A stretch of DNA of 44,762 nucleotides from a virus (IMGVR_UViG_2541047697_000005); one strand, 5' to 3'. Positions 7,190-29,835 are shown, numbered from the stretch's first letter. The notes: generated from the sequence alone by a model not told the origin. Made by a program: numbers and translations.

Positions 7190-7213
7190 CATCAGAGTTG
7201 TTGTCTGCGACGT

Positions 7214-9172: not shown

Positions 9173-9185
9173 CCTGAACCAGGAA

Positions 9186-10694: not shown

Positions 10695-10912
10695 CAGAAC
10701 CTCGCCAGCCGGTACCCGGGATGCCCCCGTCGTCGTGTAATCAGAGTCGCAAGGCGGCGCTCCCACTCCTGCCGTCCCTGCCGGATCTCAGATAAGTTTT
10801 CCATGGTCATCTGCTGACCATTAAAAGTGACGGATTTTCCGTCCAGCACCGCCATTTCAGCTTCCGTATAACGCTGAATCATGGCTTCAATATCATTCTG
10901 ATTCATAACCAT
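10694..10912 (-). CDS. Head-tail joining protein W-like
   Basis: 72 aa ending ...TRRRGHPGYRLARF, resembling lambda gpW C-terminus; between terL and portal. Confidence 0.65.
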   Translation of the reverse strand: MVMNQNDIEAMIQRYTEAEMAVLDGKSVTFNGQQMTMENLSEIRQGRQEWERRLATLITRRRGHPGYRLARF

Positions 10913-12015
10913 CCTCCGGAAGTCAGCCAGGGGTTAACATCGTCAGTTACTGTTTTCTTCCGTTTTTGTTTTTTAACAGGCGTGGGTACCGGTTCCGGTG
11001 AGGGTGACGGTTCGGTACTGTCCGGGACACACTCCAGCCAGGTTTCCCGGCTCGCCCACTCCGGTGCATCCGGCCAGCGGATCTTTTCGTATCCATGCAG
11101 AATGACCAGCGCCTCGGCATACACCATCAGGTCAAAAGCTTCGTTGGCACCGCGACCCGGCTTACTCCATTTCCCGTCACTGCTCCGCTCTTCATACGTC
11201 AGTTCGTCGTAAAACCAGCTCCCCAGCCAGTCAGGGAAATGCACATAGCCTGGACCTGGCGAGTCACGCCATAACGCGTTATTCACCCGGTCTTTCAGGG
11301 CATCCGTCTGAAGAAGCCAGAGCGGCACATCACCTGCGGCCTGCGCCCGGCGGCCCGTTCGTCCGGTGTTATCAGGGAATGTACGGCTGATCAGTTTTGC
11401 GCGCCGGATGCTGTCGCCCTTAAACAGGTAAATACGTTTACCAAGGCCATCACGACGGCAACGACGCCAGAATTTATAGGCATTATCAGTGACCCCGTCT
11501 TCACCGCCGGAGTCCACCGCCATTGCCATCAGTCGCATTTGTTGAGAAGGATCGGAGGCCAGCGGCCAGCTTTTATGAAAAACATCCGTCAGCAGGACAT
11601 CCCAGTCTTCCGGATAGCTGGCCGGATCAATTCGCTGGCTCTCCCCGTCGCAGTCACTGCGCAATGACTGCGTGATGTTGTAACGATCAATAATCCAGCG
11701 TTCGCCACGGCTGCCATAGCCCGTTACCTGAACCACAAAACGGCGATGACGTCCCGCCTGCACATCCACTGTCGCCACAAGGAAATTAACGCCATCCGGA
11801 ACACTGCGGGAAGGAACTGGCTCTGCCCGCTGCTCAAGCAGTTCACTTTTTCGTTGCTCCATGCTGGCACGAGGAAGATAAGGCAATCCCCAGTCGGTGT
11901 TGATAACCGCCCTGAGTGTTTCTTCGCTTCCTGTCGCTTCATACTCCTGTTCTGCAGTCAGTAATTTGTAAACCAGTTGCGCCCAGGTCTGATACGCAGC
12001 AGCTGGCCCTTCCAT
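10903..12015 (-). CDS. Terminase large subunit, C-terminal (nuclease) half; gene interrupted by the integrated element
   Basis: 370 aa starting MEGPAAAYQTWAQLV; lambda gpA-like C-terminal region; the ATG lies in the 7-bp repeat at the insertion junction; no ATPase domain in this ORF. Confidence 0.8.
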   Translation of the reverse strand: MEGPAAAYQTWAQLVYKLLTAEQEYEATGSEETLRAVINTDWGLPYLPRASMEQRKSELLEQRAEPVPSRSVPDGVNFLVATVDVQAGRHRRFVVQVTGYGSRGERWIIDRYNITQSLRSDCDGESQRIDPASYPEDWDVLLTDVFHKSWPLASDPSQQMRLMAMAVDSGGEDGVTDNAYKFWRRCRRDGLGKRIYLFKGDSIRRAKLISRTFPDNTGRTGRRAQAAGDVPLWLLQTDALKDRVNNALWRDSPGPGYVHFPDWLGSWFYDELTYEERSSDGKWSKPGRGANEAFDLMVYAEALVILHGYEKIRWPDAPEWASRETWLECVPDSTEPSPSPEPVPTPVKKQKRKKTVTDDVNPWLTSGGWL

Positions 12016-12019
12016 CCAG
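12013..12019. repeat. Left junction core CATCCAG (att core copy 1)
   Basis: Identical 7-mer at 22737-22743; terL homology ends here and AT-rich element DNA begins. Confidence 0.6.
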
Positions 12020-12261
12020 GAAGAAGTAAATAAAAGGTAACTAAATGATTATAAGGTACTATTTAGTTGTAACCCCATCCACATAGTCCAAGATTTAGTA
12101 CCTGCCTAAGCGATAAAAAAAAGAAAAAGGTAGCAATATTAATTAAAAGCTGAATACGCCGCCATGCATTAACACGATGACGCTGCCCGACTGCGCGGCC
12201 TTCTGTTTACCTTCTGGTAGTCTGATTCCGGTGGCACGGCGGATCACGGCGTCGTTCATTA

Positions 12262-12747
12262 TCATGCCTGTTTTACATCCTCATTCACTGCGTCATTTTT
12301 TACCATCCGGCTGATAATCTGATTACACAAATCGTCAATAATTGACTGCACTCTGTTTACTGCCATCGGTTTAAGCCCAGCATCACGTGCCAGAATACTG
12401 GGGAGTTTTTCCAGTTCCTCGCTTACGATTTCCCCCCATATAGCCATCTCTTTTCGCACATCATCGGCGGGTATGAGTTGCGCCGTTTCCTGTTCGAACT
12501 TGAGGCGCTCACGTTCGGACTGATACCAGGCCTTACGGTCGTGTGGCTCCATTTCTTCCAGTGATGCCGGAACGGGAAGATCAAGAAAACAGGTCAGAAT
12601 GTCAGTCACCCGATAGAGTTTCAGCTTGTCATGTCCTCCGGCTGGATGGATATTTTTTAGCCTTGCCGCCGCAGTCTGGCGACATATTCCCGCTATCGCC
12701 GCCAGCTGGTTAATGTTCAGCATCAGATTTTTCAGTTCCCGATCCAT
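12262..12747 (-). CDS. Small terminase subunit (Nu1-like) encoded by the element
   Basis: Start at ATG 12747 (MDRELKNLMLNINQLAAIAGI, HTH-like); KAWYQSERERLKFEQETAQLIP parallels KDWYQSENERIKLEKEQRKLIP of the helper terS at 23735-24274; a cos-like site lies about 150 bp upstream. Confidence 0.7.
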   Translation of the reverse strand: MDRELKNLMLNINQLAAIAGICRQTAAARLKNIHPAGGHDKLKLYRVTDILTCFLDLPVPASLEEMEPHDRKAWYQSERERLKFEQETAQLIPADDVRKEMAIWGEIVSEELEKLPSILARDAGLKPMAVNRVQSIIDDLCNQIISRMVKNDAVNEDVKQA

Positions 12748-12900
12748 ACCCGCTCCAGAATGTTTTAAACATGCATCTTGCAAATATCTTTTAAAAAAGG
12801 TCAAAAAACGCGCCGCATGTTGAACACAAAATAAGCAAAATTAACATACCAAAAATAAAAATACTTAAAATTCAATACAATAGAAAGATGATGATGACGA

Positions 12901-12975
12901 ATGAAAATGCAAAAACTAGCCTTTTTCCGCGCCGCTGCCGCCCCGTGGTAAGGCCACTCCACCGGGAGGACCCGT
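12901..12975 (-). repeat. cos-like site copy 1 (element, upstream of element terS)
   Basis: About 75 bp near-identical to 15438-15511 and 24416-24488; minus strand contains ACGGGGCGGCAGCGGCGCGGAAAAAG, resembling the lambda cos junction as I recall it. Confidence 0.65.
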
Positions 12976-12998
12976 AAAAAAAGGCGGCTATCGCCGCC
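12976..12998 (-). terminator. Rho-independent terminator after element capsid gene
   Basis: Minus strand GGCGGCGATAGCCGCC hairpin followed by TTTTTTT. Confidence 0.55.
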
Positions 12999-13005
12999 CT
13001 TGTTG

Positions 13006-14919
13006 TCATGCTCCACTCGATTTCAGTAGTCCACGATAATCGAGGGCCGCAACACCTGCATCTATGCGCACCTTCCAGGCGACACCATCAACAGTAAAGC
13101 CCTCCTGCTCCTCAAGATATGGCGTATCAATACCATCAAGATAAGCGACCTCTATCGTGTCCATCCCTTTCGCTGCGGCTACATACCACTCCTTGTTATT
13201 GTTCTTATCAAGACGTGGCTCAACAATAACCTCAGCCATATCTTTCACCACGTTAATGATGCCGGGGTTCTGATTGATAGTGCCATCACCATCAACCGGA
13301 AAGAGTGATGACGATGACAGAATGGCGCGATGTGCGGCAGACTCCAGCGCGGCGGGGACCAGGACAAATGCGGGGGTAATATTCAGCGAATCACCGTTAG
13401 CGTCCTCCTGGAGGCGCATCAGCTTACGGGCTTCGTTAAGCCCCTCCATGTCCATATCCTTCGCAATAAGATTTTTATGATCGGCATGGAATAGCGCCTT
13501 ACCATCCGTGAATTTGCCGTTGCCGGTTAACAGGAGATACACCAGATTACCTACTGTTCTGGCGGCTGCACGCCCCATCGCCATGGGGATTGTAGTTAAC
13601 TGGGTCAGGTCATCGTTAATAATGGCCTGGCGGGTAACGGAAAAAATATTCCCGTATGTGGCCAGCGCAATAGGTACGCCTTTATCTCTGGTGGTGATGT
13701 ATTTATATTCCGCACCTTCCGGTACTTTATCCAGCTTTGAAAAACCATTCAGACCAACACGCTTTGCTTCATGAAAGTTTGAAAGCGATCCGCTACGCGT
13801 CCACTTCTGGAACGTTTCGCCGCTGTCCTGCCAGCCTTTCAGAACTGATTTTTCAGCACCACCAGCCAGAATATGAGAAAAATCGCTGCTGCTGTGTGTG
13901 AAAGCTGCATTAACGACCTGCGAGCGATTTAAAAAACCGCCAACACTGATACCACGATCCGTTAGTGATGCCTGGGCCATTTCAAAAAGGCTCATCATCG
14001 CGTAAGGATTTCCCCGCTCTGGGCGTTCATACCCGAGACGAGAATAAAGCCCCTGACGAATTGCATCACCTGTTATGTTCCCGTTACCGGCATAAATATG
14101 AGCCGGGGTATTTTTATTTGATGGCGTGGACTCGCGCCCCATCTCGTTCAACAACTTTTCACGGGCCATCTCCGGTGTACATGATGCATCTTCCAGGCAC
14201 GCCATTTTGATCCCGTCGTAACGACTGCCGAACAGGCTAAACACTTCACTTATTCCGTTGATGCGCTTCTGTTCATTACCAGCAATATTGGCTGCTCCCT
14301 GTGGCGGGGTAATCATTCCTTTAATGGTTTCCGGCATGTGTGAAAAATCTCCTGTGCGTTTCGATTCAATTCGCGCCATTGCTCTGACGGATGGCAACAA
14401 TTCATCAGCAAAACCGTGCTTAAGGCATTCTTTCCCGTCCATCCAGGTTTCATCTTCCAGCATGGCGGTAATTTCCTGTGCTGATTTGCCCGTTTTTCTG
14501 GCATAAGCAGGGATTAACACGGTTTCCACCTTATCCAGCAAATCAGCATAATCACGCATATCACCAGCATTTCCGCCAGAGATACCCCACGGCTTATGTA
14601 TCATCATCATGGCGTTTTCCGGCATCACAACACGATCGCCAGCCATTGCGACAACCGAAGCCATTGAAGCCGCAACACCATCGATATAAACCGTAATTTC
14701 TGCCGGATGATTCCGTAACAGGTTATAGATGGCGATGCCTTCAAACACGTCACCACCTGGCGAATGGATCCGCAGGTCGATATGTGAGACATCGCCCAGG
14801 GCTTTCAGGTCTTCCGCAAACTGCTTCGCGGTGATACCGAAGCCGCCAATTTCTTCATAGATGGATATTTCTGCCGCTCCGCGAACACCCGCCGCCTTAA
14901 TGGTGTACCAGTGATTCAT
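13006..14919 (-). CDS. Second prohead protease-major capsid fusion protein (element copy)
   Basis: 637 aa colinear with the helper protein at 7214-9172; shared blocks include SPGGDVFEGIAI, MIHKP, EKLLNEMGRESTPSNKNTPAHIYAGNGN, RQAIINDDL, TIEVAYL. Confidence 0.8.
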   Translation of the reverse strand: MNHWYTIKAAGVRGAAEISIYEEIGGFGITAKQFAEDLKALGDVSHIDLRIHSPGGDVFEGIAIYNLLRNHPAEITVYIDGVAASMASVVAMAGDRVVMPENAMMMIHKPWGISGGNAGDMRDYADLLDKVETVLIPAYARKTGKSAQEITAMLEDETWMDGKECLKHGFADELLPSVRAMARIESKRTGDFSHMPETIKGMITPPQGAANIAGNEQKRINGISEVFSLFGSRYDGIKMACLEDASCTPEMAREKLLNEMGRESTPSNKNTPAHIYAGNGNITGDAIRQGLYSRLGYERPERGNPYAMMSLFEMAQASLTDRGISVGGFLNRSQVVNAAFTHSSSDFSHILAGGAEKSVLKGWQDSGETFQKWTRSGSLSNFHEAKRVGLNGFSKLDKVPEGAEYKYITTRDKGVPIALATYGNIFSVTRQAIINDDLTQLTTIPMAMGRAAARTVGNLVYLLLTGNGKFTDGKALFHADHKNLIAKDMDMEGLNEARKLMRLQEDANGDSLNITPAFVLVPAALESAAHRAILSSSSLFPVDGDGTINQNPGIINVVKDMAEVIVEPRLDKNNNKEWYVAAAKGMDTIEVAYLDGIDTPYLEEQEGFTVDGVAWKVRIDAGVAALDYRGLLKSSGA

Positions 14920-15125
14920 TGCTCACCCCCAGATGCAAAACCATTCTTATCAAGCCACGCGTTAACTGCGTGTCTGACAATCTGCGCCACACCTGGTAAT
15001 GGTTGGCCAGGATGATGATTTATGTGGTCGATCCTGTACTGCTTAAGGCGCATAACGGTCTGCGCATCCAGATGAACGGAACCACCTCTTACCTCGCCTG
15101 TGTTCAGGTCATTAATACAATTCAC
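14916..15125 (-). CDS. Hypothetical 69-aa protein translationally coupled to the element capsid gene
   Basis: GTG start with AAGAGGAAG RBS; its stop overlaps the capsid ATG; no family recognised. Confidence 0.45.
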   Translation of the reverse strand: MNCINDLNTGEVRGGSVHLDAQTVMRLKQYRIDHINHHPGQPLPGVAQIVRHAVNAWLDKNGFASGGEQ

Positions 15126-15227
15126 AGTAACTTCCTCTTACTGACTAAACTGCGTGCATTATTGATCGATAAAAGTGGTAGATAAACATATTTCTATCAT
15201 AAAAACAGATTAGTCAGATTCAGACAC

Positions 15228-15250
15228 AAAAAAGCCGGAGAAAATCCGGC
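15228..15250 (-). terminator. Rho-independent terminator
   Basis: Minus strand GCCGGATTTTCTCCGGC hairpin followed by TTTTTTGT. Confidence 0.5.
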
Positions 15251-15285
15251 ATAAATATCCCGCCATCTGAACACGTTTTGACACT

Positions 15286-15511
15286 GGCAACTCCACCTGG
15301 CAGGTGAAAAACATATTTATTTATATATTTCAATTAATTACAAACTGGTCTAATGACAGGGCGAAAAAAATATTGTACAGGTGAAAACGGAAATATTTTT
15401 TAATTATCAATAAATTATCACACATGCTGCCGCCGCCATGAAAATGCAAAAACCAGCCTTTTTCCGCGCTGCTCCCGCCCCGTGGCAAGGCCACTCCATC
15501 GGGAGGACCCG
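15286..15511 (-). repeat. cos-like site copy 2 (element), extended ~225 bp duplicate of the helper cos region
   Basis: Near-identical to 24265-24488 including the AT-rich segment and a stub of the terS 5' end (GTGGAGTTGCCAGTGTCAAAACGTG vs helper ATGGAGTTGCTTATGTCAAATGTG). Confidence 0.65.
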
Positions 15512-15512
15512 T

Positions 15513-15534
15513 AAAAAAGCCGGATTGTTCCGGC
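15513..15534 (-). terminator. Rho-independent terminator after ssb
   Basis: Minus strand GCCGGAACAATCCGGC hairpin followed by TTTTTT. Confidence 0.55.
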
Positions 15535-15550
15535 TTCTGTCACTCGTTGC

Positions 15551-15973
15551 TTAAAACGGTATGTTATCCCCGTACGGATCATCATTTCCCGCCTGTTGTT
15601 TTGCCCTGTTCAGCGCGTCAGTAGCCTGGCCCTGCTGGCCTTTTTTGCCGCCCGGTCGCGCCGTTCTCGCACTGATTACGCTGTCTGCGATGACCTGCCA
15701 GCCCTGCCGCGTTTCGCCGTTCTGGCCTGTCCACTGGCTTACCTGCATGTTACCCGCCACGCTCACCAGTTCGCCTTTATGGTGTCTGGCCAGTGCGTCG
15801 GCCTGTCTGCCAAACGCCAGGACGGATAACCACATCGTCGCCGTTCCGTCATCTGCCTGGCTGCACGGCAGGGAAACCGCCATACTCGCCATCGCCATTG
15901 TTGTGCCCTTGCTGGTGGTCTTTAACTGCGGGTCAGCCACCAGCCGCCCGTAAGCCGCTATCTGTGCTGTCAT
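15551..15973 (-). CDS. ssb: Single-stranded DNA-binding protein
   Basis: 140 aa, Gly/Gln-rich tail ending DDPYGDNIPF (SSB C-terminal acidic motif). Confidence 0.75.
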   Translation of the reverse strand: MTAQIAAYGRLVADPQLKTTSKGTTMAMASMAVSLPCSQADDGTATMWLSVLAFGRQADALARHHKGELVSVAGNMQVSQWTGQNGETRQGWQVIADSVISARTARPGGKKGQQGQATDALNRAKQQAGNDDPYGDNIPF

Positions 15974-16227
15974 GCTGTATGCTCTCCGGTTTTAACGTTG
16001 ATGGTTGTCACCTGTTCCGCTTCGGCAATCTCCCGATCTGTCAGCGTGGCAAAGTTTGCCGCCGCTGTGGTCATGAATGCGCTTATCAGTTCGGGATGTG
16101 CTTTCGCGTATCCCTCTCCCGTGTTGCGGTCGATGATTTTTATCGCCATCCTCAGCCAGTGCTCTGTAAGGTCAATGGCGCGGTTATGTGGTTTCTTCTG
16201 ATTGTTAAATTTTCCTGATGTGTGCAT
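15970..16227 (-). CDS. Hypothetical protein
   Basis: 85-aa ORF overlapping ssb start; no family recognised. Confidence 0.4.
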   Translation of the reverse strand: MHTSGKFNNQKKPHNRAIDLTEHWLRMAIKIIDRNTGEGYAKAHPELISAFMTTAAANFATLTDREIAEAEQVTTINVKTGEHTA

Positions 16228-16261
16228 TTTTATTTTTACCCCCCTCGTTTAAAAAGTTTTG

Positions 16262-16505
16262 AGTTGTACCTCCCCTTGTCTACCTTATCTACCTTGCTGG
16301 CCCCAATGCCAGTAATGGCGCGGCTTTCAGCGGGGTAGAGTGCTTTTATCCACTATCTACCCCGTATCTACCTCCCTGTCTGATTCAGGTAAAATCAGGT
16401 AGAGAGGGTAGATAGTAGGTAGATAGTGAAAAAATGCTGTCTACCTAAGTTAATGTACTGAATTAAATGTATTTTCCTTTACTCAGGTAGACAGGGTAGA
16501 CAGCC
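16262..16505. repeat. Iteron array, putative replication origin of the element
   Basis: At least 10 copies of an 8-9 bp unit RGGTAGAYA / TRTCTACC in both orientations, immediately downstream of the primase-helicase gene. Confidence 0.65.
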
Positions 16506-16516
16506 ATTGCAAAAAA

Positions 16517-18271
16517 TTATAAAAACGCGTCGCAATCGTCTGTTGTTATTGCGTTAGTCTGCGTTACCCCCTTAACTTTCCGCGTAATATATTCATGTCC
16601 GTAAACTTTCGCGGCGGGCTTCATAGCCTTGCCAAAGTCATTTACGTTCAGCGGTTTGGTCCTGCCTGCGTAAGCCATAAACGCCAGATAGACACGGTAA
16701 AGGCTGTTCCTGGTTGTGTACTTCACGGAATCACCACCGCCGCCCATCATCAGGCCACGCGCTTCCTCCAGAAAATTCAGGAACTGGCAAAACTCAATAA
16801 CTGGATCCGTTTGCTGCTTTATCGCCAGTGCTTCATCACCGTCACGCTGTTCCAGTAGTAAAGCCCGTGCCTTCTCAGGGTCGGTAAAGTTCGCCAGCAA
16901 TCGGCGGATAATAACGGGGATTTCAGCCGCAATCTTTTCCGGTAGCTCCCTGTCTTTTTCGGCCTCACTGACGATATTGTCGAAACGGAAAATCACGCGA
17001 CGACGTGCCACACCTCCGGCACGTTCGGTGAATATCATCGGGTTGTTGTTGGTCGCCAGCACCACCGCCCTGATTACCGCCGTGAAACGCTTTTCATATT
17101 TCGGGTTAATTTCCACGGGGTCGCCGCCTGTGATTTTCTTGATGCCCGTTCCTTCTCCTGTATATTTCGGCTGGTCAGCCAGGACGATAAGACGACTCCC
17201 GACAACCTGCGCACGTCCACCAGCATCATCAAGCGATGTCATTTCAGCGCTTACCGTGTTCTGTTTCCCTGCCAGAAGGCTGGCTATGTGTGTGAATGTA
17301 CTTTTACCGCTCCCGCCGTCTCCGGTGGCCTCAATAAACATCTGCCAGTCGTACCGGTTCGCCATAATCATGTACAGCGCGGCACATATACGCATCATCT
17401 TGCGCGGGTCTTTTCCGGCTGCGTGCTCAAGCCATTTATGAAAGTTTGGCGCGTTATCGCGGATGTTTTCCCCTGGTGCTGGTAGCGTGTACTCAATGCC
17501 GTTGTGCGTGGTGATCCAGTTCTCCGGCGTGTGCGGGGAAAATTCCCCCGTTTTCAGGTCAAGCGCACCATTGGCGAACGGCAGCAAATCGCCGGACGGC
17601 TCGCCCATTGGTTCGGCAATAACTTTTAACGCTTCCACGGCGTTATTGATTACGCGCTTGCTGAAAGTGGCCCTGTGCTCTGAATAGATCGCCACCATTT
17701 CGCGGCTAAGTTCCATTGTGCTGACCTGACACCATACCCCGCCGCGCCATACGTGAACGATTTCACTTTCAGGATGTACGCAAACGCCATCAAAGCGATC
17801 GGCTAGCAGCTGCGCGCGCTCACTGTCCGCCATCTGCGAAAGTTGCGCCTTTTGCTTTACCGGAAGCTCAATGACCAGACCATCAGAAAGATTCTGGCGC
17901 TCACGGGCCAGATATTCGCGCCAGTTCTGCACCTCCTGGCCGTGCATACCCTCAGGATAAAAATTTGCATCCTGTACGCCTGCCGCCGCCAGCTTCTGAC
18001 CAATCGCCTTTATCATTACTGGCGCAAGATATCCGGCCCTGAATATGCGCACGGATTTTCTGCCTTCCGGCACAATTTGCAGCTTATCCAGTTCGGATAA
18101 CTGCTGCTCCCCAAGCCACACAGGAGGCTCATTATCTCCGGCCATACGCGCGTCATGTTCCTGCCATTGTTTTGCGTGTGACCAGGCATCACTACCCGCA
18201 AAAATAATTACCTCTGTGTCTTTGTTTTTTATTCCGCGAGGCTGTTTTTTTACGTTCGGTGCCAGTTTCAT
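16517..18271 (-). CDS. Primase-helicase (P4 alpha / D5-family)
   Basis: 584 aa with Walker A GDGGSGKST; P4-type primase C-terminal region; adjacent iterons. Confidence 0.8.
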   Translation of the reverse strand: MKLAPNVKKQPRGIKNKDTEVIIFAGSDAWSHAKQWQEHDARMAGDNEPPVWLGEQQLSELDKLQIVPEGRKSVRIFRAGYLAPVMIKAIGQKLAAAGVQDANFYPEGMHGQEVQNWREYLARERQNLSDGLVIELPVKQKAQLSQMADSERAQLLADRFDGVCVHPESEIVHVWRGGVWCQVSTMELSREMVAIYSEHRATFSKRVINNAVEALKVIAEPMGEPSGDLLPFANGALDLKTGEFSPHTPENWITTHNGIEYTLPAPGENIRDNAPNFHKWLEHAAGKDPRKMMRICAALYMIMANRYDWQMFIEATGDGGSGKSTFTHIASLLAGKQNTVSAEMTSLDDAGGRAQVVGSRLIVLADQPKYTGEGTGIKKITGGDPVEINPKYEKRFTAVIRAVVLATNNNPMIFTERAGGVARRRVIFRFDNIVSEAEKDRELPEKIAAEIPVIIRRLLANFTDPEKARALLLEQRDGDEALAIKQQTDPVIEFCQFLNFLEEARGLMMGGGGDSVKYTTRNSLYRVYLAFMAYAGRTKPLNVNDFGKAMKPAAKVYGHEYITRKVKGVTQTNAITTDDCDAFL

Positions 18272-18555
18272 TTCTTACCCCCTGCGACCAGCATTTCACG
18301 GATTTTGCGGATATAGCTTGCTGCACGTTTCTGATTTACGGCTTTACGATGGCCCACCAGCTTAAAATCACGCCGGAACTGATAAACAGGCATCACGCAG
18401 TCGTAGCTGTACCCATCACGGCGGTAAGTAACGCACCGTCCGGCAATACTTTTAATCGTTACCGTGCCGCCGTAGTTATCCCGGAAAATATCGCCGGGGC
18501 GGATTTCAGGCCGAGCGGGGCCGCTGGCAGTAAAGCCAGAAATTTTCTGTTTCAT
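18268..18555 (-). CDS. Hypothetical protein
   Basis: 95-aa ORF, stop overlaps primase start. Confidence 0.45.
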   Translation of the reverse strand: MKQKISGFTASGPARPEIRPGDIFRDNYGGTVTIKSIAGRCVTYRRDGYSYDCVMPVYQFRRDFKLVGHRKAVNQKRAASYIRKIREMLVAGGKK

Positions 18556-18560
18556 GGTTT

Positions 18561-18770
18561 TTATTCCTCTGCGCGGGTCTTGTTGTGTATTTCCATAACC
18601 GCGTTTAATTCATCAATAACCGGGGTTAACAGAGTGCTGAAAGCAGAAAATAAATCCCCCCCCTGTTCGGCATGAACTTCGGTTAATTTAATTAATACCG
18701 CTTTCATTTCCAGTGCCCGATTTAATGCATTCTCAGAATGAATAAGAACATCGAAAGGGATTTCATTCAT
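18561..18770 (-). CDS. Hypothetical protein
   Basis: 69-aa ORF in operon context. Confidence 0.4.
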   Translation of the reverse strand: MNEIPFDVLIHSENALNRALEMKAVLIKLTEVHAEQGGDLFSAFSTLLTPVIDELNAVMEIHNKTRAEE

Positions 18771-18996
18771 GGCTCACCACCTCCGGGAATTTTCTTCTGT
18801 AACGCGCCTCTGCAACATATTCCGCATAGTCCGACGCAATATTGAGAATATCGCTACCCGTTCCTGAATGTTCGGCGGTTTCCAGTAAAAAACATGCAGC
18901 TTTTACCATGTCAGCAACACATAACAGCGCAATATCTGTATCTTCCGGTGCGCCATCAAATTCCTGTTTCAGGGCATTAAAACGATCATCACGCAT
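18763..18996 (-). CDS. Hypothetical protein, possible downstream part of a gene split at a poly-G tract
   Basis: 77-aa ORF whose ATG sits 2 nt after a G12 run; one extra G fuses it with the ORF at 18969-19232. Confidence 0.4.
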   Translation of the reverse strand: MRDDRFNALKQEFDGAPEDTDIALLCVADMVKAACFLLETAEHSGTGSDILNIASDYAEYVAEARYRRKFPEVVSHE

Positions 18997-19232
18997 AACC
19001 CCCCCCCCCCATTTTCACAATCCGTAATCAGGATGGCTTTAGCCTCATTCAGCGCCATATCAGCGGTAAGCTGTGCGTAGGCCAGCGAATGGGGGATTAT
19101 TGCCCCTGTATATTCCGGCTCTCTGGTAATGTGTTTTTCTGCGGTTGCTGCCGTGCATGAAATATCAATCAGCGCGTGCATCAGCGTTCTGATAGCTTCG
19201 GCGGCTGCGTCCTGACGGGGGTTATTGCACAT
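18969..19232 (-). CDS. Hypothetical protein, possible upstream part of a gene split at a poly-G tract
   Basis: 87-aa ORF translating the G12 run as GGGG and ending 9 codons later. Confidence 0.4.
   Translation of the reverse strand: MCNNPRQDAAAEAIRTLMHALIDISCTAATAEKHITREPEYTGAIIPHSLAYAQLTADMALNEAKAILITDCENGGGGLCVMIVLMP
18999..19010. repeat. Homopolymer C12 (G12 on coding strand)
   Basis: 12 consecutive C on plus strand. Confidence 0.95.
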
Positions 19233-19488
19233 GGCGCACCTCCTGACGAATACGGGCGGCGAATACCATCACGCAGCCAGCCGGAGATTGCTGGCGTGCT
19301 TCCTGTTCGCTGGTGGCCTCGATGGTAATCACGCGCGGCTGTGCCGTGCTCAGGGCGATAAAACGCCAGATGTATTTATTCAGGTTGTGCGAGTCCCGCC
19401 CTTGCGGGTGTGTGGTATGATTTCTCATAGCTACCTCGATACGCTTTCTATCGTTGGTGGTTAGAAGCCCTGCGAGTGGTAACGACAC
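19222..19488 (-). CDS. Hypothetical protein (first gene of the element leftward operon)
   Basis: 88-aa ORF starting next to the divergent regulatory region. Confidence 0.4.
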   Translation of the reverse strand: MSLPLAGLLTTNDRKRIEVAMRNHTTHPQGRDSHNLNKYIWRFIALSTAQPRVITIEATSEQEARQQSPAGCVMVFAARIRQEVRHVQ

Positions 19489-19525
19489 TTGCGGGGCTTT
19501 GTCTTTTCATCGATTACCTTAACAA

Positions 19526-19608
19526 AGGTGTCAGCCACTATATTAGTAACAGGTGTCAGCCACGTCAATGGTGTTTTTCCGTTTTCTTGTGTGTATACTG
19601 TCAGCCAC
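19526..19608. promoter_or_regulatory. Divergent regulatory region with three direct repeats GTCAGCCAC and a TATACT -10 element
   Basis: GTCAGCCAC at 19530, 19555, 19600; first two extended as AGGTGTCAGCCAC; TATACT at 19594-19599 abuts the third repeat, 30 bp before the ATG at 19630. Confidence 0.5.
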
Positions 19609-19629
19609 CTAATAACGAGGGAATCCGAT

Positions 19630-19809
19630 ATGGCAACGAAAGCAGTTAATGGAAAATCCAAAAAACTTGAGGCTCGAGTACCCCACGCAATAGCTGACGC
19701 TGTAGAAAATTTAAAGGAAGAAGGCGAAAGCACAGGGCAATTTATCGTTTCGGCACTTGAAGGCGAGATCAAACGCCGCCAGCGTCGCAAGGCCAAAGAG
19801 CAGGAGTAA
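19630..19809 (+). CDS. Small ribbon-helix-helix-like DNA-binding protein, candidate regulator of the element
   Basis: 59 aa MATKAVNGKSKKLEARVPHAIADAVENLKEEGESTGQFIVSALEGEIKRRQRRKAKEQE; ACGAGGGA RBS; downstream of operator repeats. Confidence 0.5.
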   Translation: MATKAVNGKSKKLEARVPHAIADAVENLKEEGESTGQFIVSALEGEIKRRQRRKAKEQE

Positions 19810-19866
19810 CCATCACCAGCGCCGTGGTGCGGTGAACTGTGGCGCACAGGGCTACAGGTATCTACG

Positions 19867-20064
19867 ATGACTGACAAATCATTAAAGAAATTATCTTCAT
19901 CCAGGAAAAAACAACGCAAAAACGCGGTAAGCGAACAAGAACAGGAGAGATTCGCGCCATGTGCGTTTGTCCTTGAGAAGTTCTTAAAAGAGTACAGGCG
20001 CACAAAAATGGGGCTATATACCTGGAAAACATCGCAGCATGGCGATGCTAAAGAGCAGGAATAG
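19867..20064 (+). CDS. Hypothetical small basic protein
   Basis: 65-aa ORF following the RHH gene; weak RBS. Confidence 0.3.
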   Translation: MTDKSLKKLSSSRKKQRKNAVSEQEQERFAPCAFVLEKFLKEYRRTKMGLYTWKTSQHGDAKEQE

Positions 20065-20291
20065 CCCACCAGCAAGCCAGCACACTGATCACATTGCCAA
20101 CCGGATGTAATCACGGCATAGTAATCAGCGCTCATGCGTTGGGGATAACGTGTAGCTTGTGTCGAATGGCCACCGTAGCAGGTGGCCTTTGTTTTGCCTG
20201 TTATCCGGCAATTGTGGCGCTTCTCCACACGGTTGATATAATCCCCCTGCACAGATTCATTTTTTGCGCAGTAGGTTAATTGTTCGCAAGG

Positions 20292-20322
20292 GCGCTCCGG
20301 CAACGGGGCGCTTTTTGTTTTT
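20292..20322 (+). terminator. Rho-independent terminator
   Basis: GCGCTCCGGCAACGGGGCGC hairpin followed by TTTTTGTTTTT. Confidence 0.55.
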
Positions 20323-20480
20323 ACCCACCAGCACAATAAAAATCCTCTTTTCCCATTTTTGTAAAATTTCATGCTTTCCGGACGACTGGCCATATATCTT
20401 TTTTAGCAGAAGATTTTGCCTTGCTGGTTGGTAGCTTCCCGGTCCAACACGATGTACCGTATAATCAGCACTGCGAGTGG

Positions 20481-21059
20481 TTACTGAATACGCTCACCAA
20501 AGTAAAACTCAGGCTGATATTCACGTATCAGCCTTTTTTCTTCTTCCTCCAGCTCACGCTTTTTGCGCTTACAGGCCTGTAGCTCCCTCCCCTTCTCGCT
20601 GGCACTTATCTGATATTGCTCTTTACGGCGAGAAAAATCCTGTAATGCGCCCCACGGGATACCATAAGCCCCCGTTTTTCTGATACCCGGTATCACATTT
20701 CTGAATACCCAGTTACTGAAACGATGAGCAAATGTGCCAGGCGTCGTTGCTTTGCGGCTGCGGGCTATTAGTTTGTAGAAACCTGACTCAGAGATAATGC
20801 TCATATTCTGATTTCCTCCTGGGGTGTAAGTTAAATTTACTCCCTTTTCATCATCATCAAGCATCTGCAACGCCGTACGCGAATTGGTTAGTTCCAGCGC
20901 AGCACAAACATCTTTTGCAACAAACCACGGATCGCCGTTCAGATACACCACACGAACATCCACGCCATCAAAGCGCAGAACGACAAGATCACGAATATCG
21001 CAGAATTTTTTTACTGAACGAGCGTACCCCTTGCCCGTCACGGCAATATTTTTATTCAT
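20481..21059 (-). CDS. Bro-N domain protein (antirepressor-like)
   Basis: N-terminus LVVLRFDGVDVRVVYLNGDPWFVAKDVCAALELTNSRTALQMLDDDEKG matches the Bro-N pattern. Confidence 0.7.
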   Translation of the reverse strand: MNKNIAVTGKGYARSVKKFCDIRDLVVLRFDGVDVRVVYLNGDPWFVAKDVCAALELTNSRTALQMLDDDEKGVNLTYTPGGNQNMSIISESGFYKLIARSRKATTPGTFAHRFSNWVFRNVIPGIRKTGAYGIPWGALQDFSRRKEQYQISASEKGRELQACKRKKRELEEEEKRLIREYQPEFYFGERIQ

Positions 21060-21117
21060 CGTTTTTTACCTCACATACAAAAAACCCCGCATTGCGTGCG
21101 GGGTATGAAAGATATTA

Positions 21118-21321
21118 TTAGTGGGGATTGGCCTGTTCTCGTTGTTTATCTAACCATGCCTCTACATCTCTACGGTGCCAGGTATGCCGCCGCCCAATTC
21201 TGAACGGTTGAGGAAAACCATTATTTTCATCTTTCCAGAAATTGATGAATGCGCTCATTGCCCCATAGCGCAAAATTTTCATTACGTCTTTAGTAAATAA
21301 AATATCTTCATTGGTATTCAT
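21118..21321 (-). CDS. alpA: AlpA-family transcriptional regulator/excisionase
   Basis: 67 aa; MKILRYGAMSAFINFWKDENNGFPQPFRIGRRHTWHRRDVEAWL resembles AlpA; adjacent to integrase. Confidence 0.75.
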   Translation of the reverse strand: MNTNEDILFTKDVMKILRYGAMSAFINFWKDENNGFPQPFRIGRRHTWHRRDVEAWLDKQREQANPH

Positions 21322-21333
21322 TTGCTGAACTCC

Positions 21334-22572
21334 TCAACCATTTACTATTCTCAAACCTTTCTTACCACAGGATCTATTAATTACCCCTTTTCTCGCCTCA
21401 TCAAAAAAATCGCCTACCCATTGCATCATAATTTTGCGTTGTTCTAAATAAGTAGTTCTATTATAAATATCTCTTATTTTATCACCACTTTTATGTGCTA
21501 ATGCAGCCTCAATAACATCAGGGTTAAAACCCTCCTCATTTAAAAGCGTACTCCACATCGAACGAAAACCATGTAACGTTACAATCCCTTTGAACTTGCT
21601 GGCAGCAATTGGAGTATTGATAGTATTCCTCCCCATAGGCGCGTCTTTGGTTCTGGATGAATAGAATACATAACGCCCTCTTTTAATTTCCTGCATTGTT
21701 CTGAGGATGCTAATGGCCTGTGATGACAGGGGCACAACATGTTCACGATGGCATTTCATTTTATGCTCAGGGATAACCCACAGACCAGCATCAAAATCTA
21801 TCTCTGCCCACTCTGCCTGGATCGCCTCTCCAGGCCTGACCATTGTCAATATCTGGAATAAAAGCGCATTGTGAGCTATTTGATACTTATGAGGCACACT
21901 ATCCCACCAACTCAGAAATTCAGGTAATTTTTCTATAGGTAACGCTGCTAATAATTTATTTTTCTTTCCAGTGAATGCTGTCTTTATTTTAAGCAATGGA
22001 TTTATTTTCAATGCACCACAATTTACAGCGTAATTCATAATTTCATTTAATCTTGATATTAATTTTTTTTGCAGCGCGTTTTTATCAGATACGGCATCCA
22101 GTGCCTTAATTGCTAATGGTGCTGTAATTTTATCTATGCTGTATTTACCAAAGAAAGGAACAAGATACTTATATACTTCATATTCGATATTATACAACGT
22201 AGGTTTCCTCAACTCCGATCCTTTTTTAAAAGCGAACCATGCATTAGCAACGACTTCAAATGTCTGTAGATTTTTTAGCGCCATCTCAATTTTACGATTT
22301 TTCTTCTCTGTCACTGGATCAACTCCACGTGCAATCATTCGCCGAAGTTCATCACGTACTTCCCGTGCTTCCGCGAGTGAGAATTCAGGAAAACGCCCTA
22401 TCGTGTATGTCTGCCGTTTCTTCGTTATCGGATGGCTATAACGGAAACGCCACACTTTCCCACCAGCTTTACTCACATTCAGCAATAAACCGAACCCATC
22501 ATAAACGGCATAGTCCTTTTCACGTGGTTTCATTCCCTTAACTTCAGTCACGGTTAATGGCTTTACCGGCAT
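21334..22572 (-). CDS. Tyrosine integrase (P4 / CP4-57 IntA type) of the element
   Basis: 412 aa with P4-int-like N-terminus (GKVWRFRYSHPITKKRQTYTIGRFPEFSLAEAREVRDELRR) and C-terminal catalytic region (HGFRSMWSTLL...); AT-rich; next to the junction. Confidence 0.8.
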   Translation of the reverse strand: MPVKPLTVTEVKGMKPREKDYAVYDGFGLLLNVSKAGGKVWRFRYSHPITKKRQTYTIGRFPEFSLAEAREVRDELRRMIARGVDPVTEKKNRKIEMALKNLQTFEVVANAWFAFKKGSELRKPTLYNIEYEVYKYLVPFFGKYSIDKITAPLAIKALDAVSDKNALQKKLISRLNEIMNYAVNCGALKINPLLKIKTAFTGKKNKLLAALPIEKLPEFLSWWDSVPHKYQIAHNALLFQILTMVRPGEAIQAEWAEIDFDAGLWVIPEHKMKCHREHVVPLSSQAISILRTMQEIKRGRYVFYSSRTKDAPMGRNTINTPIAASKFKGIVTLHGFRSMWSTLLNEEGFNPDVIEAALAHKSGDKIRDIYNRTTYLEQRKIMMQWVGDFFDEARKGVINRSCGKKGLRIVNG

Positions 22573-22733
22573 CTATCGCCCTCATTTTTTAGTCCGTCAT
22601 GTAGTCCTTTCAAGTCGATAACAAGCGATAAACTAACTCATTATCAAGTAAAGAGAGGAAACACCAAAAATCACAACTCATTGAAAAGACTACAAAACGA
22701 CACCAGAACATAAAAACAGGTAAGAAATGTACC

Positions 22734-23726
22734 CTACATCCAGAAACTGGCGATACGGGAGCGGCGCGGTTCACCGGAAACGTTGCCGTTACGATCAATG
22801 ACCTGACCTTCACGCAACCAGACTCCTGCACTATTGAGCTCACGCTTTTTCTCCGCAGTGATAATGCCGCTGCAGTGCGGGCAAAGTAGATACGCCGCCT
22901 CACTGGCTTTAAAGGGATCCGGTTCATTACGGTAGCCGGTCATGGCATCCATAGCTGGCTGAAAATATTCACCGCAGTGCGGACATGGCCAGTACCAGCG
23001 GCGGCGGTCACCACGATTGTAAAGGGAAAGAATACCAGTCGTCGGTGGCGCTTCATGAGGCGACTTACGTCGCCATTTGCTGTCGCAGATGTCACGTCCC
23101 GGCGAGCTCTCCACCAGAGTCATCCCGGCGGACATAAATGTGGTGGTACGTTTTGAGGCCAGGGAGAAACCATCACCCTCGCTGTCGATATTCTCCGGAA
23201 AACGGTCGTAATCGGTTAAGGCGACAAACCGGTAATCCGACGACGACATAATGTTGACCGAGGGCCAACCAATTTTAAGGAACGAGCCATCCCTGAACGT
23301 CTTATCATGGACATTATTGTCGTTACGACGTGGACTCATTCTTTTCTTTACCGCCGCACTGCTTCTGAACGTTCTGTCGAGGCGCTTTTTAGAATGCTCG
23401 CGGGCCTTATCTTCGGTCATCTGCACAACGAGCATGTCCGAAGGATCGCAAACGATGGTATAGACAATCCATCCATCGATCAGACCAATGGTCTTCCCTG
23501 TTCGCGCAGGACCAACAAAAATCACCGCATCGTATTCACGCGATGCCAGGCAGTTCATGGGCTCAATGATGTAGGGTGTCAGTTCAGGATCCCATGGCAC
23601 CGAGTTACCAGCCCCCTTGGGAACACGCATGAATTTTTTAACAGCCTCCGAAATCGGCATGCGACGTGGTGGGGAAAATCCTGCCGATATGTCCCTTCCC
23701 AAATTTCGGGCTGATGAAAAACCCAT
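22734..23726 (-). CDS. Terminase large subunit, N-terminal (ATPase) half; gene interrupted by the integrated element
   Basis: 330 aa with FVGPARTGKT P-loop, WPCPHCGEYF and LLCPHCSGII motifs paralleling lambda gpA; ends ...RIASFWM followed by stop in element-derived sequence. Confidence 0.8.
   Translation of the reverse strand: MGFSSARNLGRDISAGFSPPRRMPISEAVKKFMRVPKGAGNSVPWDPELTPYIIEPMNCLASREYDAVIFVGPARTGKTIGLIDGWIVYTIVCDPSDMLVVQMTEDKAREHSKKRLDRTFRSSAAVKKRMSPRRNDNNVHDKTFRDGSFLKIGWPSVNIMSSSDYRFVALTDYDRFPENIDSEGDGFSLASKRTTTFMSAGMTLVESSPGRDICDSKWRRKSPHEAPPTTGILSLYNRGDRRRWYWPCPHCGEYFQPAMDAMTGYRNEPDPFKASEAAYLLCPHCSGIITAEKKRELNSAGVWLREGQVIDRNGNVSGEPRRSRIASFWM
22737..22743. repeat. Right junction core CATCCAG (att core copy 2)
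   Basis: Identical 7-mer to 12013-12019; terL N-half reading frame terminates (TAG) 1 codon into element DNA. Confidence 0.6.
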
Positions 23727-23734
23727 TATTCCTC

Positions 23735-24274
23735 CTAGAGACTCTCTCCTTCCTCATCAGGAATTAATTCAGCAGCACAAGCCTCGTAGGATTTTTCCTG
23801 AAGAGTGTATCGCAGGTCATCAATGGCCTGCTGTACAACGCCGACGGCCTGAGGAGTCAGGGCGCAATCGCGTTCAAGAACATCCGGAATTGTCTCCAGA
23901 ACCTGGACGACAGCCTTTCTCATGGACGAATAGACGATGACTACTTCATCAACTGGGATGAGTTTTCGCTGCTCCTTTTCCAGCTTGATCCTTTCATTTT
24001 CAGACTGGTACCAGTCCTTTCTCTCTTTCGGCTCCATACGGGATGGATCATGAACAGAGTCTGCTGCCTCATGCTTCACACTAAACAGGGCGGGCCCGAC
24101 ATGCTGCAGGGCGTAAACGGGGTTCCCCCTGACAGTCGCAGCCACAGGAGTGTTGGCCGCGAGGAGCCGTTTTTTTACTGTGTCCCGGTGAAGCCCAAAG
24201 GCCTCGGCGATTTTAAAAACACTCCAGTAATAAGCATCACCGATCCCGCTCACATTTGACATAAGCAACTCCAT
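23735..24274 (-). CDS. Small terminase subunit (Nu1-like) of the helper prophage
   Basis: 179 aa, N-terminal HTH-like region, immediately upstream of terL and downstream of cos. Confidence 0.75.
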   Translation of the reverse strand: MELLMSNVSGIGDAYYWSVFKIAEAFGLHRDTVKKRLLAANTPVAATVRGNPVYALQHVGPALFSVKHEAADSVHDPSRMEPKERKDWYQSENERIKLEKEQRKLIPVDEVVIVYSSMRKAVVQVLETIPDVLERDCALTPQAVGVVQQAIDDLRYTLQEKSYEACAAELIPDEEGESL

Positions 24275-24488
24275 CTGGCAGGTGAAAATCAGGTTTATTT
24301 ATATATTTCAATTAATTGCAAACTGGTCTAATGACAGGGAGAAAAAAATATTGTACAGGTGAAAAGAGAAATAACTTTTAATTATCAATAAATTACCAAA
24401 CATGCTGCCGCCGCCATGGAAATGCAAAAACTAGTCTTTTTCCGCGACGCTCCCGCCCCGTGGCAGGGGCCCCCACCGGGAGGACCCG
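24275..24488 (-). repeat. cos-like site copy 3 (helper prophage cos, upstream of terS)
   Basis: Minus strand contains CCACGGGGCGGGAGCGTCGCGGAAAAAG plus AT-rich segment, located between lysis-side genes and terS as in lambda. Confidence 0.7.
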
Positions 24489-24818
24489 ACAGCCTGACAG
24501 CCGTGACGAGCATCTGATACAGCGCTTTACATAATGGCATAGGAATAATTCAGAAGGACATCACAGCATGCCCACACAAATTAGTGTGAGTGTCCTGTTT
24601 CTTCCTACGCACAGGACTGACGAGCATGAGGGGAAAATACGCGAACCATAAATGCCTCATCTTCAGCAATGCAGCCGAACAGGACGATATTGTAAATTCA
24701 CCTAATTACGAGGACATTGCAGTAGTTGAATTGCAGCTCTGTATTAGCCTGCAGTGACAGAATGCGATATTGACTCTGTCACAGGTGAAATAGTTTGAAT
24801 GATTAGCAGTTATGGTGC

Positions 24819-26464: not shown

Positions 26465-26735
26465 GATGTTACCGTAGTATGTGAGTATCCATCGAATAGA
26501 CACCAAGCAAAAAAGCTCCCGAAGGAGCCTTCATTTTCACTTTTTTAAATCCAACGACAGACGGCTGGCATTTAAGTATTGTGAAATATTATCAAATGTA
26601 ATCATCATTGATTTACAAAAGATACATTTTGCCCCGAAAGGATTCATGTCAGAAACATCAAAAGATGATGTTCTATACTGGGAACCATGACAACACGGGC
26701 ATCTAAAGTGAATATGGTTTGTAATATTGTCTACC

Positions 26736-26948
26736 TCAAAGCGCCACTACATGAACAGCGGCAGGACCTTTAGGTCCGTTCTCAATACCAAATTCAACTT
26801 CCTGATTCTCAGTTAATGTTTTGAAATCGTTGCTCTGAATTGCTGAGAAATGGACAAACACATCTTTGCTGCCATCTTTCGGCGTGATGAAACCAAAACC
26901 TTTTTCAGGGTTAAACCATTTCACTAAACCAGTCATTTTGTTAGACAT
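26736..26948 (-). CDS. cspI: Cold-shock protein CspI-like
   Basis: [53 protein letters not shown]...: cold-shock domain with RNP motifs; long 5' leader. Confidence 0.85.
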
Positions 26949-27316
26949 AATTATTACCTTTTGAAGAAATTAGCCCTTGGGCAGAATGGTCCGAAAAAAA
27001 ATATCAGAGAGAAAAACCAACAAGGAAATCTCAAGAGGTACAAATAATAAAATTATAACAATGACTGCTTCAGATAAATTTGTAACAAACCAGAACACCA
27101 TTAACGCATGATTAACCACCCATAGCAAGGATTACTTTTGTAAAGAAAAACACAGCAATGAAAGAATAGCTTTATTTATTAATAAAACGTGTCATTCTGA
27201 TTAAGACCTTTTATCTTACCCTTAAGATTTCAGGAATTTTGACTCATGGAAGAGTCCTTTTTATTTAAATTTTACATTCAGCGATGTAAATGTTCCGATT
27301 TAATATTACCCTACAT

Positions 27317-29338: not shown

Positions 29339-29619
29339 GAGATTGTGGTGCTTTTTGTGGGAGTCATCCACTTACGCACTTTGTTTTGCCATGCCAGCAG
29401 TTAGCTTCTGCTGTAAAACTATTCATGCAGCAAACCTGCACTTCACCACAATGGTTAGCATACTTTTCCTGATTAAGATTTTGCCAAATATGCTGGCCAT
29501 TGTTTCATGTATTGGACCTCCTTAAATTTTATTAAAGAAATCCAATATTCACTACTCTGTCCGTATCTCTACTCAGGCATCAGCCTTCTTCGTTATCGTA
29601 TACAGACGAGCGATGAATT

Positions 29620-29835
29620 TTAATCAGTAATGATGACATTTGCTGCTGCAGGACCTTTAGCACCACTCTCTATAGAGAAGGTAACCTTTTGACCTTCAAA
29701 TAAGGTTCGATAATTATCATTCTGAATCGCAGAAAAATGCACAAACACATCTTTACTACCATCAACAGGAGAAATAAAGCCGAAACCTTTATCAGCGTTA
29801 AACCATTTTACTAAACCAGTCATTTTATTTGACAT
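29620..29835 (-). CDS. cspB: Cold-shock protein CspB-like
   Basis: [67 protein letters not shown]... Confidence 0.85.

Follow-up and report, generated by a model that had tools for sequence, protein, structure and literature searches.

A nested PICI-type satellite with two cos sites of different cosB type lies within the terminase gene of a lambdoid prophage that carries a third cos site

Both phage-inducible chromosomal islands (PICIs) with two cohesive-end (cos) sites and PICIs embedded in a helper prophage have already been published. EcCICFT073, the prototype Escherichia coli PICI, carries two lambda-like cos sites that were both functional when cloned, and deletion of the pair abolished transfer; the island is proposed to enter capsids of full size through a terminase that skips successive cos sites (Fillol-Salom et al. 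2018 ISME J; PMC6092414). Two putative cos sites have also been noted in SaPIbov4, one of the Staphylococcus aureus pathogenicity islands (SaPIs; PMC6092414). The Rpp proteins of PICIs, 139-154 amino acids in length, heterodimerise with the small terminase subunit, TerS, of the helper (PMC6739421; Fillol-Salom et al. 2019 Mol Cell). Helper-embedded PICIs (HE-PICIs) constitute a class found in the late genes of lambdoid prophages (Tommasini, Mageeney & Williams 2023, PMC10111431). Here, we analysed 44,762 nt of viral DNA (IMGVR_UViG_2541047697_000005; the window), in which three lambda-type cos sites lie within 12 kb. We observed that copy 3 is the single cos site of a cdtI/Tritos-like lambdoid prophage, and that copies 1 and 2 belong to a satellite nested in terL, the large terminase gene of that prophage. 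The cosB types of the two satellite sites differ and each has its match among phages; a cognate TerS paralog accompanies one of the sites. On balance we favour, with rather better than even confidence and from sequence comparison, the interpretation that this nested PICI has two cos sites of different TerS specificity, one used by the helper terminase and the other by satellite TerS together with helper TerL.

The satellite resembles EcCICFT073 in its backbone order, which runs through int, AlpA, an Icd-like gene, DUF4222, primase, a 258-nt open reading frame (ORF), single-stranded DNA-binding protein (SSB), a small ORF, a capsid homolog, cos and a packaging-specificity gene. One cos site of EcCICFT073 directly follows a GCCGGA..TCCGGC-T-run hairpin upstream of rppA, as copy 1 does here upstream of its own specificity gene. 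Unlike EcCICFT073, in which the specificity protein is Rpp, a TerS-binding mimic, the satellite encodes a full TerS paralog (DUF1441/phrog_141). The cos sites also differ in arrangement, being inverted around rppA in EcCICFT073 (L009 27557+ and 28309-), whereas those of the satellite are direct repeats at a distance of 2.5 kb, one on each side of the capsid gene; a shared two-cos layout was considered and rejected on account of this inversion. Neither site of EcCICFT073 has a phage cosB, in contrast to the full helper-type cosB of copy 2, the cohesive end is GGGCGGCGACCT there and GGGCGGGAGCGT/G here, and the capsid protein is lambda E/D-like there and a fusion of ClpP protease and major capsid protein (MCP) here. 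We also observed that a terminator hairpin, GCCGGAGAAATCCGGC, with its T-run directly abuts cosQ both in EcCICFT073 and in this satellite family (L009 27480-27530, window 15516-15531, L039 1970-1995); lambda lacks this junction, which seems to be a conserved PICI feature.

As in published HE-PICIs, the satellite lies inside and co-oriented with a lambdoid late gene, is bounded by a precise attachment (att) identity block of ~10 bp and leaves its target gene to be restored only on excision. It shares their four zones (integration, Bro, replication and late) and, like them, has a region ~90% identical to the helper cos region; the HE-PICI 11capE shares 258 bp with its helper at 90%. In contrast to the satellite, with its TerS paralog and second cos site of different specificity, 11capE has no terS. 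The published gene-A sites are in Terminase_1-type terL (positions 132 and 245/246), whereas the terL gene occupied here is GpA-type. A search of the published HE-PICI attL/attR files (14 sites) yielded neither a GpA-profile site nor this junction, and the GpA-type terL attachment is probably an additional HE-PICI site. Comparison with SaPIs revealed two likenesses, namely redirection of helper TerL to the satellite's site by satellite TerS (pac SaPIs) and an encoded homolog of the helper capsid protein (Ccm of the cos island SaPIbov5); SaPIs differ in being Gram-positive and unrelated in sequence, and their TerS strategy serves headful (pac), not cos, packaging. With the lambda group (lambda, 21, phi80, N15 and Gifsy-1) the locus shares cosQ/cosN homology, a similar distance from cosN to terS, and alleles of cosB, TerS and the TerL N-terminus that are swapped as a unit (here A, B and S). 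Its TerS proteins differ from lambda's in being of the DUF1441 family, with no detectable similarity to Nu1.

The cos sites were recognized as three copies of a core of ~75 bp, all on the minus strand. A first-pass annotation of the same DNA had reported this recurrence, and it was confirmed by a repeat search of the window, by BLAST and by shuffling. With the 75-nt core as BLAST query, copy 2 was 93% and copy 3 88% identical; the lower value of 70% over 81 nt given for copy 3 by the repeat search arises because its final ~10 nt diverge. The central 28-nt pattern, CCACGGGGCGGNAGCNNCGCGGAAAAAG, has exactly three matches in the window, all on the minus strand, and no match occurred in 100 shuffles when up to three mismatches were allowed. 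Copies 2 and 3 share ~160 nt more towards lower coordinates (15277-15490 and 24255-24468, 90% identity), a stretch that the repeat search did not find beside copy 1. The core ends 142 nt from the terS ATG at copy 3 (24416 and 24274) and 154 nt from it at copy 1 (12901 and 12747), in agreement with the ~150 bp first estimated. Equally accurate was the earlier statement that two copies lie within the element ~2.5 kb apart on either side of its capsid gene: copies 1 and 2 are separated by 2,537 bp, with the ClpP-protease/capsid fusion gene (13006-14919) between them.

Alignment with characterized cos DNA, the check proposed with the first-pass annotation, used lambda's real termini from NC_001416 as the reference. 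All three copies aligned with lambda cosQ and cosN, with the cosQ block, the cosN context and the spacing conserved, and the resemblance to lambda cosN noted in the first-pass annotation proved to be homology. Across the termini (slashes mark the boundaries of the cohesive end), lambda reads ACGGGTCCTTTCCGGTGATCCGACAGGTTACG/GGGCGGCGACCT/CGCGGG and copy 1 reads ACGGGTCCTCCCGGTGGAGTGGCCTTACCACG/GGGCGGCAGCGG/CGCGGA, while copy 3 aligned to lambda as ACGGGTCCT..CCGGTG...ACG/GGGCGG....../CGCGG. The nicking-site context ACG/GGGCGG....../CGCGG was found in all three copies, and the cosQ element, ACGGGTCCTCCCGGTG here and ACGGGTCCTTTCCGGTG in lambda, stands at an equal distance from cosN. From cosN to the terS start there are 196 bp at copy 1 and 184 bp at copy 3, compared with 190 bp in lambda; copy 2 has a full type-A cosB sequence, followed by only a stump of terS. 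Homology thus confirms all three repeats as genuine lambda-type cos sites at the level of sequence, the core in each case comprising cosQ, cosN and the spacer to bp 43 from the predicted left end. The genomes of phages cdtI (AB285204) and Tritos (OV696610) are 99.4-99.8% identical to the prophage, and both deposited records begin with GGGCGGGAGCGT and end with ...CCACG, corresponding to window position 24458 within copy 3. These record ends, as set by the depositors, are strong but indirect support for copy 3 as cos.

A cohesive overhang of 12 nt is predicted from the length of that of lambda. The predicted ends are GGGCGGCAGCGG for copy 1 (12943-12932), GGGCGGGAGCAG for copy 2 (15480-15469) and GGGCGGGAGCGT for copy 3 (24458-24447), and the overhang here differs from lambda's at positions 7-12. 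A survey covered 165 related loci; viral-contig scans proved much more productive than a genome-contig scan with satellite TerS, which gave only five loci, all phage-type relatives. Among the relatives, an overhang ending in GCGT is near-universal in A- and B-type phages, GCGG prevails at the S-type sites of satellite copy 1 and phage L053, and the variants of copies 1 and 2 of the window are rare.

Every gene in the region is on the minus strand. Beyond copy 3, the type-A cosB of the helper shows 99-100% identity across 80 loci of type-A phages, all of which have a single cos site, and the equivalent of the adjacent DUF1441 gene is annotated as terS in cdtI. The helper terL gene is uninterrupted in cdtI and split in the window: cdtI nt 1-1722 corresponds to window positions 24458 down to 22737 (99.4% identity) and cdtI nt 1713-6500 to positions 12022 down to 7235 (99%), the two alignments overlapping by 10 bp. 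A 10,714-bp element (12023-22736) is inserted precisely at terL codon ~327-330 with duplication of the 10-bp core, at the boundary between the ATPase and nuclease domains. The nuclease half lies 11 kb from the ATPase half and is followed by the portal gene and a ClpP-protease/capsid fusion gene. The type-A phage loci have an intact terL in 66 of 80 cases and a single cos site in all 80, from which it follows that the presence of three cos sites within 12 kb stems purely from the nested satellite. The same terL junction was found, exactly, in 19 complete E. coli genomes and several IMG/VR proviruses, and it occurs in both type-A and type-B helpers. The helper terL stays split until the satellite excises, and no helper terminase could be produced before then.

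It should be noted that the att core holds an in-frame terL ATG (...TTC TGG ATG GAA...) at 12015, so that the ORF of the nuclease half (10903-12015) starts exactly at the junction; no obvious Shine-Dalgarno sequence was seen ahead of this ATG. Elsewhere in the helper prophage, Rfam matches at gathering score were obtained at 26709-27094, 29604-29996, 33550-33724 and 39956-40007. These comprise two cspA thermoregulator leaders, which coincide with a duplication (26749-26948 and 29636-29835), the sok antitoxin RNA and DicF, the usual cargo of Qin/DLP12-like lambdoid prophages.

The inserted element is a PICI-type satellite nested in its presumed helper, in the configuration of an HE-PICI. This assignment follows from the occurrence of its backbone elsewhere, both free-standing between abgR and smrA in strain CRE444 (L002), where both cos copies are kept, and as the backbone of EcCICFT073 (L009). 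It has int and AlpA at one end, unidirectional genes, a primase/replication module, att repeats, an incomplete complement of morphogenesis genes and a length of 10,714 bp, within the range of 10-20 kb, all features of Gram-negative PICIs. Its genes are oriented like the helper late genes and are transcribed in the order integrase, AlpA-like regulator, Bro-N protein, DUF4222 protein, D5-type primase, SSB, copy 2, a 69-amino-acid ORF, the ClpP/capsid fusion, copy 1 and a second DUF1441 protein (Table 1). The capsid fusion is a paralog of the helper gene at 7214-9433, with 57% amino acid identity, and both DUF1441 proteins match the small terminases of phrog_141. A terminator hairpin (12998-12983) precedes copy 1. 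The late genes of the satellite are the ClpP-MCP fusion and terS only; portal, TerL and head-tail connectors are not among its genes, and the class of capsid-forming PICIs was rejected on this basis. The block of cos, capsid gene, cos and terS is present in 175 of 5426 complete E. coli genomes. Just downstream of the primase gene we observed an inverted repeat with 39-nt arms and GGTAGAT/GGTAGAG-like iterons (16334-16445), at the location where PICI replication origins are reported.

Table 1. Features of the satellite and of the flanking helper packaging genes, in window coordinates
Feature	Coordinates	Strand	Details and evidence
Helper terL, 3' half (nuclease domain)	10903..12015	minus	PF20454 GpA_nuclease, 5.7e-84
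attR core, TTCCTGGATG	12013..12022	minus	cdtI alignments; junction read
Helper-embedded PICI-type satellite, 10,714 bp	12023..22736	minus	cdtI terL alignment
Satellite small-terminase paralog, DUF1441, 161 amino acids	12262..12747	minus	phrog_141, 2e-57
Type-S cosB	12748..12900	minus	Unrelated to type A from bp 44 on
Copy 1, satellite's own (cosQ, cosN, spacer)	12901..12975 (core); 12901-12981 (repeat)	minus	Repeat search; left end starts at 12943 (GGGCGGCAGCGG)
ClpP-protease/major-capsid fusion	13006..14919	minus	CLP_protease and Phage_capsid_4 domains
69-amino-acid ORF overlapping capsid gene start	14916..15125	minus	phrog_4934, 1.7e-30
cos(A) cassette, 272 bp	15241..15512	minus	Contains copy 2, type-A cosB (15277-15437), 24-codon terS stump (ATG to GTG) and terminator hairpin (15250-15234)
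Copy 2	15438..15511 (core); 15438-15518 (repeat, 94%)	minus	Repeat search; left end starts at 15480
SSB	15551..15973	minus	PF00436, 3.8e-16
Primase/helicase	16517..18271	minus	Domain search (D5_N, DUF5906)
AlpA-like helix-turn-helix excisionase/regulator, 67 amino acids	21118..21321	minus	phrog_66 'excisionase and transcriptional regulator', 4e-7
Tyrosine integrase	21334..22572	minus	Arm-DNA-bind_3, Phage_int_M and Phage_integrase domains
Helper terL, 5' half (ATPase domain)	22734..23726	minus	PF05876 GpA_ATPase, 8e-82
attL core, TTTCTGGATG	22737..22746	minus	10-bp overlap of cdtI alignments; junction read
Helper small terminase, DUF1441, type A	23735..24274	minus	PF07278, 1.7e-44; phrog_141 'terminase small subunit', 4e-65
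Helper type-A cosB, bp 44 to terS start	24275..24415	minus	Two TTTTCACCTG repeats
Copy 3 of helper (cosQ, cosN, spacer)	24416..24488 (core); 24416-24496 (repeat, 70% over 81 nt)	minus	Repeat search; predicted left end starts at 24458 (GGGCGGGAGCGT)

Counted from the predicted left end, the three copies share their sequence through bp 43 and diverge from bp 44. In lambda, bp 50-65 hold R3, a key element for TerS binding whose distance from cosN is critical (PMC9026076). From bp 44, copy 2 tracks the type-A cosB of the helper as far as the terS start, where GTG replaces the ATG and a stump of 24 codons leads into a terminator. In each of the 15 distinct versions of the satellite, this cosB matches that of genuine type-A phages at 92-95% identity as far as the terS start, and the range is 91-96% over all satellites that carry the cassette; its type is still A in L087, where the satellite resides in a type-B helper. 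From bp 44, copy 1 carries an unrelated cosB (type S), with ~70% identity to the cosB of type-B phages and ~81% to that of the S-like phages L052/L053. Type-S cosB of copy 1 is always accompanied by satellite TerS. Residues 1-65 of this protein are 72% identical to type-B TerS and 82% identical to S-like phage TerS, with only 18% identity to the helper TerS-A; its C-terminal part is 41% identical to TerS-A. The cosB of copy 1 and the N-terminal domain of TerS covary with B/S-type phages. If the analogy to lambda Nu1 holds, the N-terminal half of TerS would bind DNA and the C-terminal half would bind TerL. An AlphaFold2 single-sequence model of satellite TerS had a mean pLDDT of 45 and was unusable. 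The alternative candidate, that the satellite DUF1441 protein is an Rpp homolog, was rejected, as neither RppC nor any significant PDB match was found by sequence and the protein is a TerS paralog instead.

At least three cosB/TerS alleles (A, B and S-like) exist among the phages of this family, and they are swapped as a unit that includes the N-terminal domain of TerL. On the downstream side of about cdtI nt 1825, phages of type A and of type B/S have ~100% identity, against 30-90% on the upstream side, and cosB, terS and the terL ATPase domain are exchanged as one specificity module (cdtI nt ~44-1825, window 24415-22634). The right edge of the module lies ~100 bp from the att core, which forms an 11-nt conserved island (1714-1724) inside a divergent stretch. 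We considered whether the A/B mosaic boundary in terL coincides with the att site; the match is not exact, the switch at about cdtI nt 1825 falling ~100 bp past the core at 1713-1722.

Among the related satellites, the A-type copy is a discrete 272-bp cassette between two copies of the hairpin GCCGGA..TCCGGCTTTTTT. The cassette is cleanly absent from L039, L044 and L048, in which one hairpin is left, and we saw no decayed remnants of copy 2 in cassette-less satellites. In L020 and L024 the capsid gene is absent and there is only one cos site, the left flank of which corresponds to the A copy and the right flank to the S copy of L022; this cos is an exact cos-to-cos fusion. More complex arrangements were also observed. 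L021 (IMGVR_UViG_2778261579_000007) has three cos cores within 4 kb (5800-11374), where an S-like-type phage cos, terS and a 45-codon terL stub are fused to satellite SSB and followed by the A and S copies. The phage-type part has a TerS with 67% identity and a cosB ~71-77% identical to both S and B, and L021 looks like a helper-satellite recombinant. L028 and L046 are satellite contigs with a pair of capsid-fusion genes and additional cos cores of greater divergence, one of which (L028, 1310) has the overhang GGGCGGGCGGTT; these may be tandem or nested satellites.

The favoured interpretation of two cos specificities can be set out as a sequence of putative steps. Site-specific recombination would have placed the satellite in the helper terL. 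Upon induction, the satellite would excise and restore terL, so that copy 3 would stay with the helper and copies 1 and 2 would leave with the satellite. The satellite sites share cosQ and cosN, which TerL needs, and differ from bp 44, where TerS specificity would be read. At copy 2, the native terminase of type-A helpers would initiate packaging on satellite concatemers; at copy 1, a hybrid of satellite TerS and helper TerL would do so. We infer both this division of labour and the packaging from concatemers. Four satellite units (42,856 bp, 91% of the cdtI genome) could fill one helper-sized head.

The first-pass annotation had raised the objection that cos sites so closely spaced conflict with cos-to-cos packaging. 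This concern largely dissolves, given that the sites belong to two replicons, that packaging of PICI DNA in concatemers of phage length, with skipping of cos sites, has been reported and that EcCICFT073 provides a precedent. Lambda terminase leaves a downstream cos uncut until the head is nearly full, and close spacing is not in conflict with packaging by a lambda-type terminase, because such an enzyme ignores cos until that point.

More tentatively, with slightly less than an even chance of being correct, we propose that the satellite family is 'bilingual', combining a portable 272-bp type-A cos with an S-type cos that has its own TerS, and thereby being packageable by helpers with differing cosB/TerS alleles. 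The satellite is found embedded in both type-A and type-B helpers. If this proposal is true, cutting or recombination between the two sites would yield capsid-less derivatives with a single cos.

Several observations weigh against a role for both sites as proposed here. Copy 2 is dispensable: of ~35 related satellites, about 10 retain the capsid gene yet carry no type-A cassette. Given the close relationship among the satellites (at least 90% identity), the conservation of copy 2 is of limited statistical weight. In EcCICFT073, deletion of the second cos site raised transfer, so a second site is not necessarily beneficial (PMC6092414). The 12-nt overhangs of the three copies in the window differ from one another at 1-3 positions. 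Finally, the domain logic of TerS is drawn by analogy with lambda Nu1 only, because the DUF1441 TerS has no significant similarity to Nu1 (BLASTP, E 4.6), nor did it match any PDB sequence.

Some of these points would also fit a model in which copy 2 is a neutral passenger and only copy 1 packages, copy 2 having arisen by capture of helper late genes and subsequent deletion from terS to portal, or by recent recombination with a type-A phage. PICI late zones have been proposed to derive from captured helper late-gene clusters followed by gene loss (PMC10111431), and the stump of the terS start on copy 2, the ~10 related satellites without this copy and the dispensable second cos site of EcCICFT073 are all consistent with such a history. 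However, copy 2 is intact throughout, with cosQ, cosN and the 92-95% identical cosB including both TTTTCACCTG repeats, while the neighbouring capsid gene product is only 57% identical to that of the helper. In relatives, copy 2 is either intact or cleanly absent, never decayed, and it keeps its A type in the type-B-helper satellite L087. We therefore regard a passenger as unlikely, and the related suggestion in the first-pass annotation that one site is a relic is disfavoured by the same intact-or-absent pattern.

The first-pass annotation had also put forward a decoy or a regulatory site. As a decoy, copy 2 would titrate helper TerS-A or terminase off the helper genome and lower helper yield. 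A helper-type cosB that lacks a cognate gene on the satellite could be read in this way, and interference with helper packaging is common among PICIs (PMC6739421). Yet a complete cosQ-cosN-cosB on a concatemer would itself be packaged from, making the two roles hard to separate; the satellite TerS paralog could already compete for TerL; and the cassette is present in satellites of type-B helpers, where the resident TerS is not titratable (L087). We consider a decoy function improbable.

It is no more credible, and in our judgement a shade less so, that the second cos site serves mainly to provide extra termination points or to generate variants, with cuts from copy 1 to copy 2 giving molecules in an 8.2-kb register as well as capsid-less derivatives. 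Two sites per unit would offer more near-full stops (40.3, 42.9 and 45.4 kb), and L020 and L024 are exact A-left/S-right fusions without the capsid gene, but ordinary homologous recombination at the 75-bp direct repeats could yield the same fusion, and the retention of a full helper-type cosB, which is not needed for termination, would be left unexplained.

A transcriptional or other regulatory element, or an artefact of assembly or duplication, can be virtually discounted: each satellite copy does stand directly after an intrinsic terminator hairpin, but a regulatory role is unsupported given the base-for-base homology to lambda cosQ/cosN, the phage record termini inside the core and the lack of any Rfam match at the repeats or within the satellite in a gathering-score scan, which speaks against a known structured RNA or regulatory element; the same layout, with precise att junctions, is also present in 175 complete genomes.

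In the literature that we searched, we found no description of a direct two-cos layout that combines a helper-type cassette with a site served by a TerS paralog, nor of a GpA-type terL attachment site or of cos-fusion derivatives. The locus probably adds a GpA-type terL attachment site to the published list of HE-PICI sites. For annotation, a 'split' terL accompanied by extra cos sites marks a nested satellite and not a decayed prophage. Ordinary E. coli isolates that carry the composite, such as EC42405 (NZ_CP043414), 2A (NZ_CP146939) and A5 (NZ_CP028769), represent a testable system for terminase choice and skipping among close cos sites. If the favoured interpretation is true, the retargeting of cos by a TerS paralog would give E. 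coli PICIs a second mechanism besides Rpp, and the satellite would widen its helper range by means of one signal copied from the helper and a second signal with its own recognition protein.

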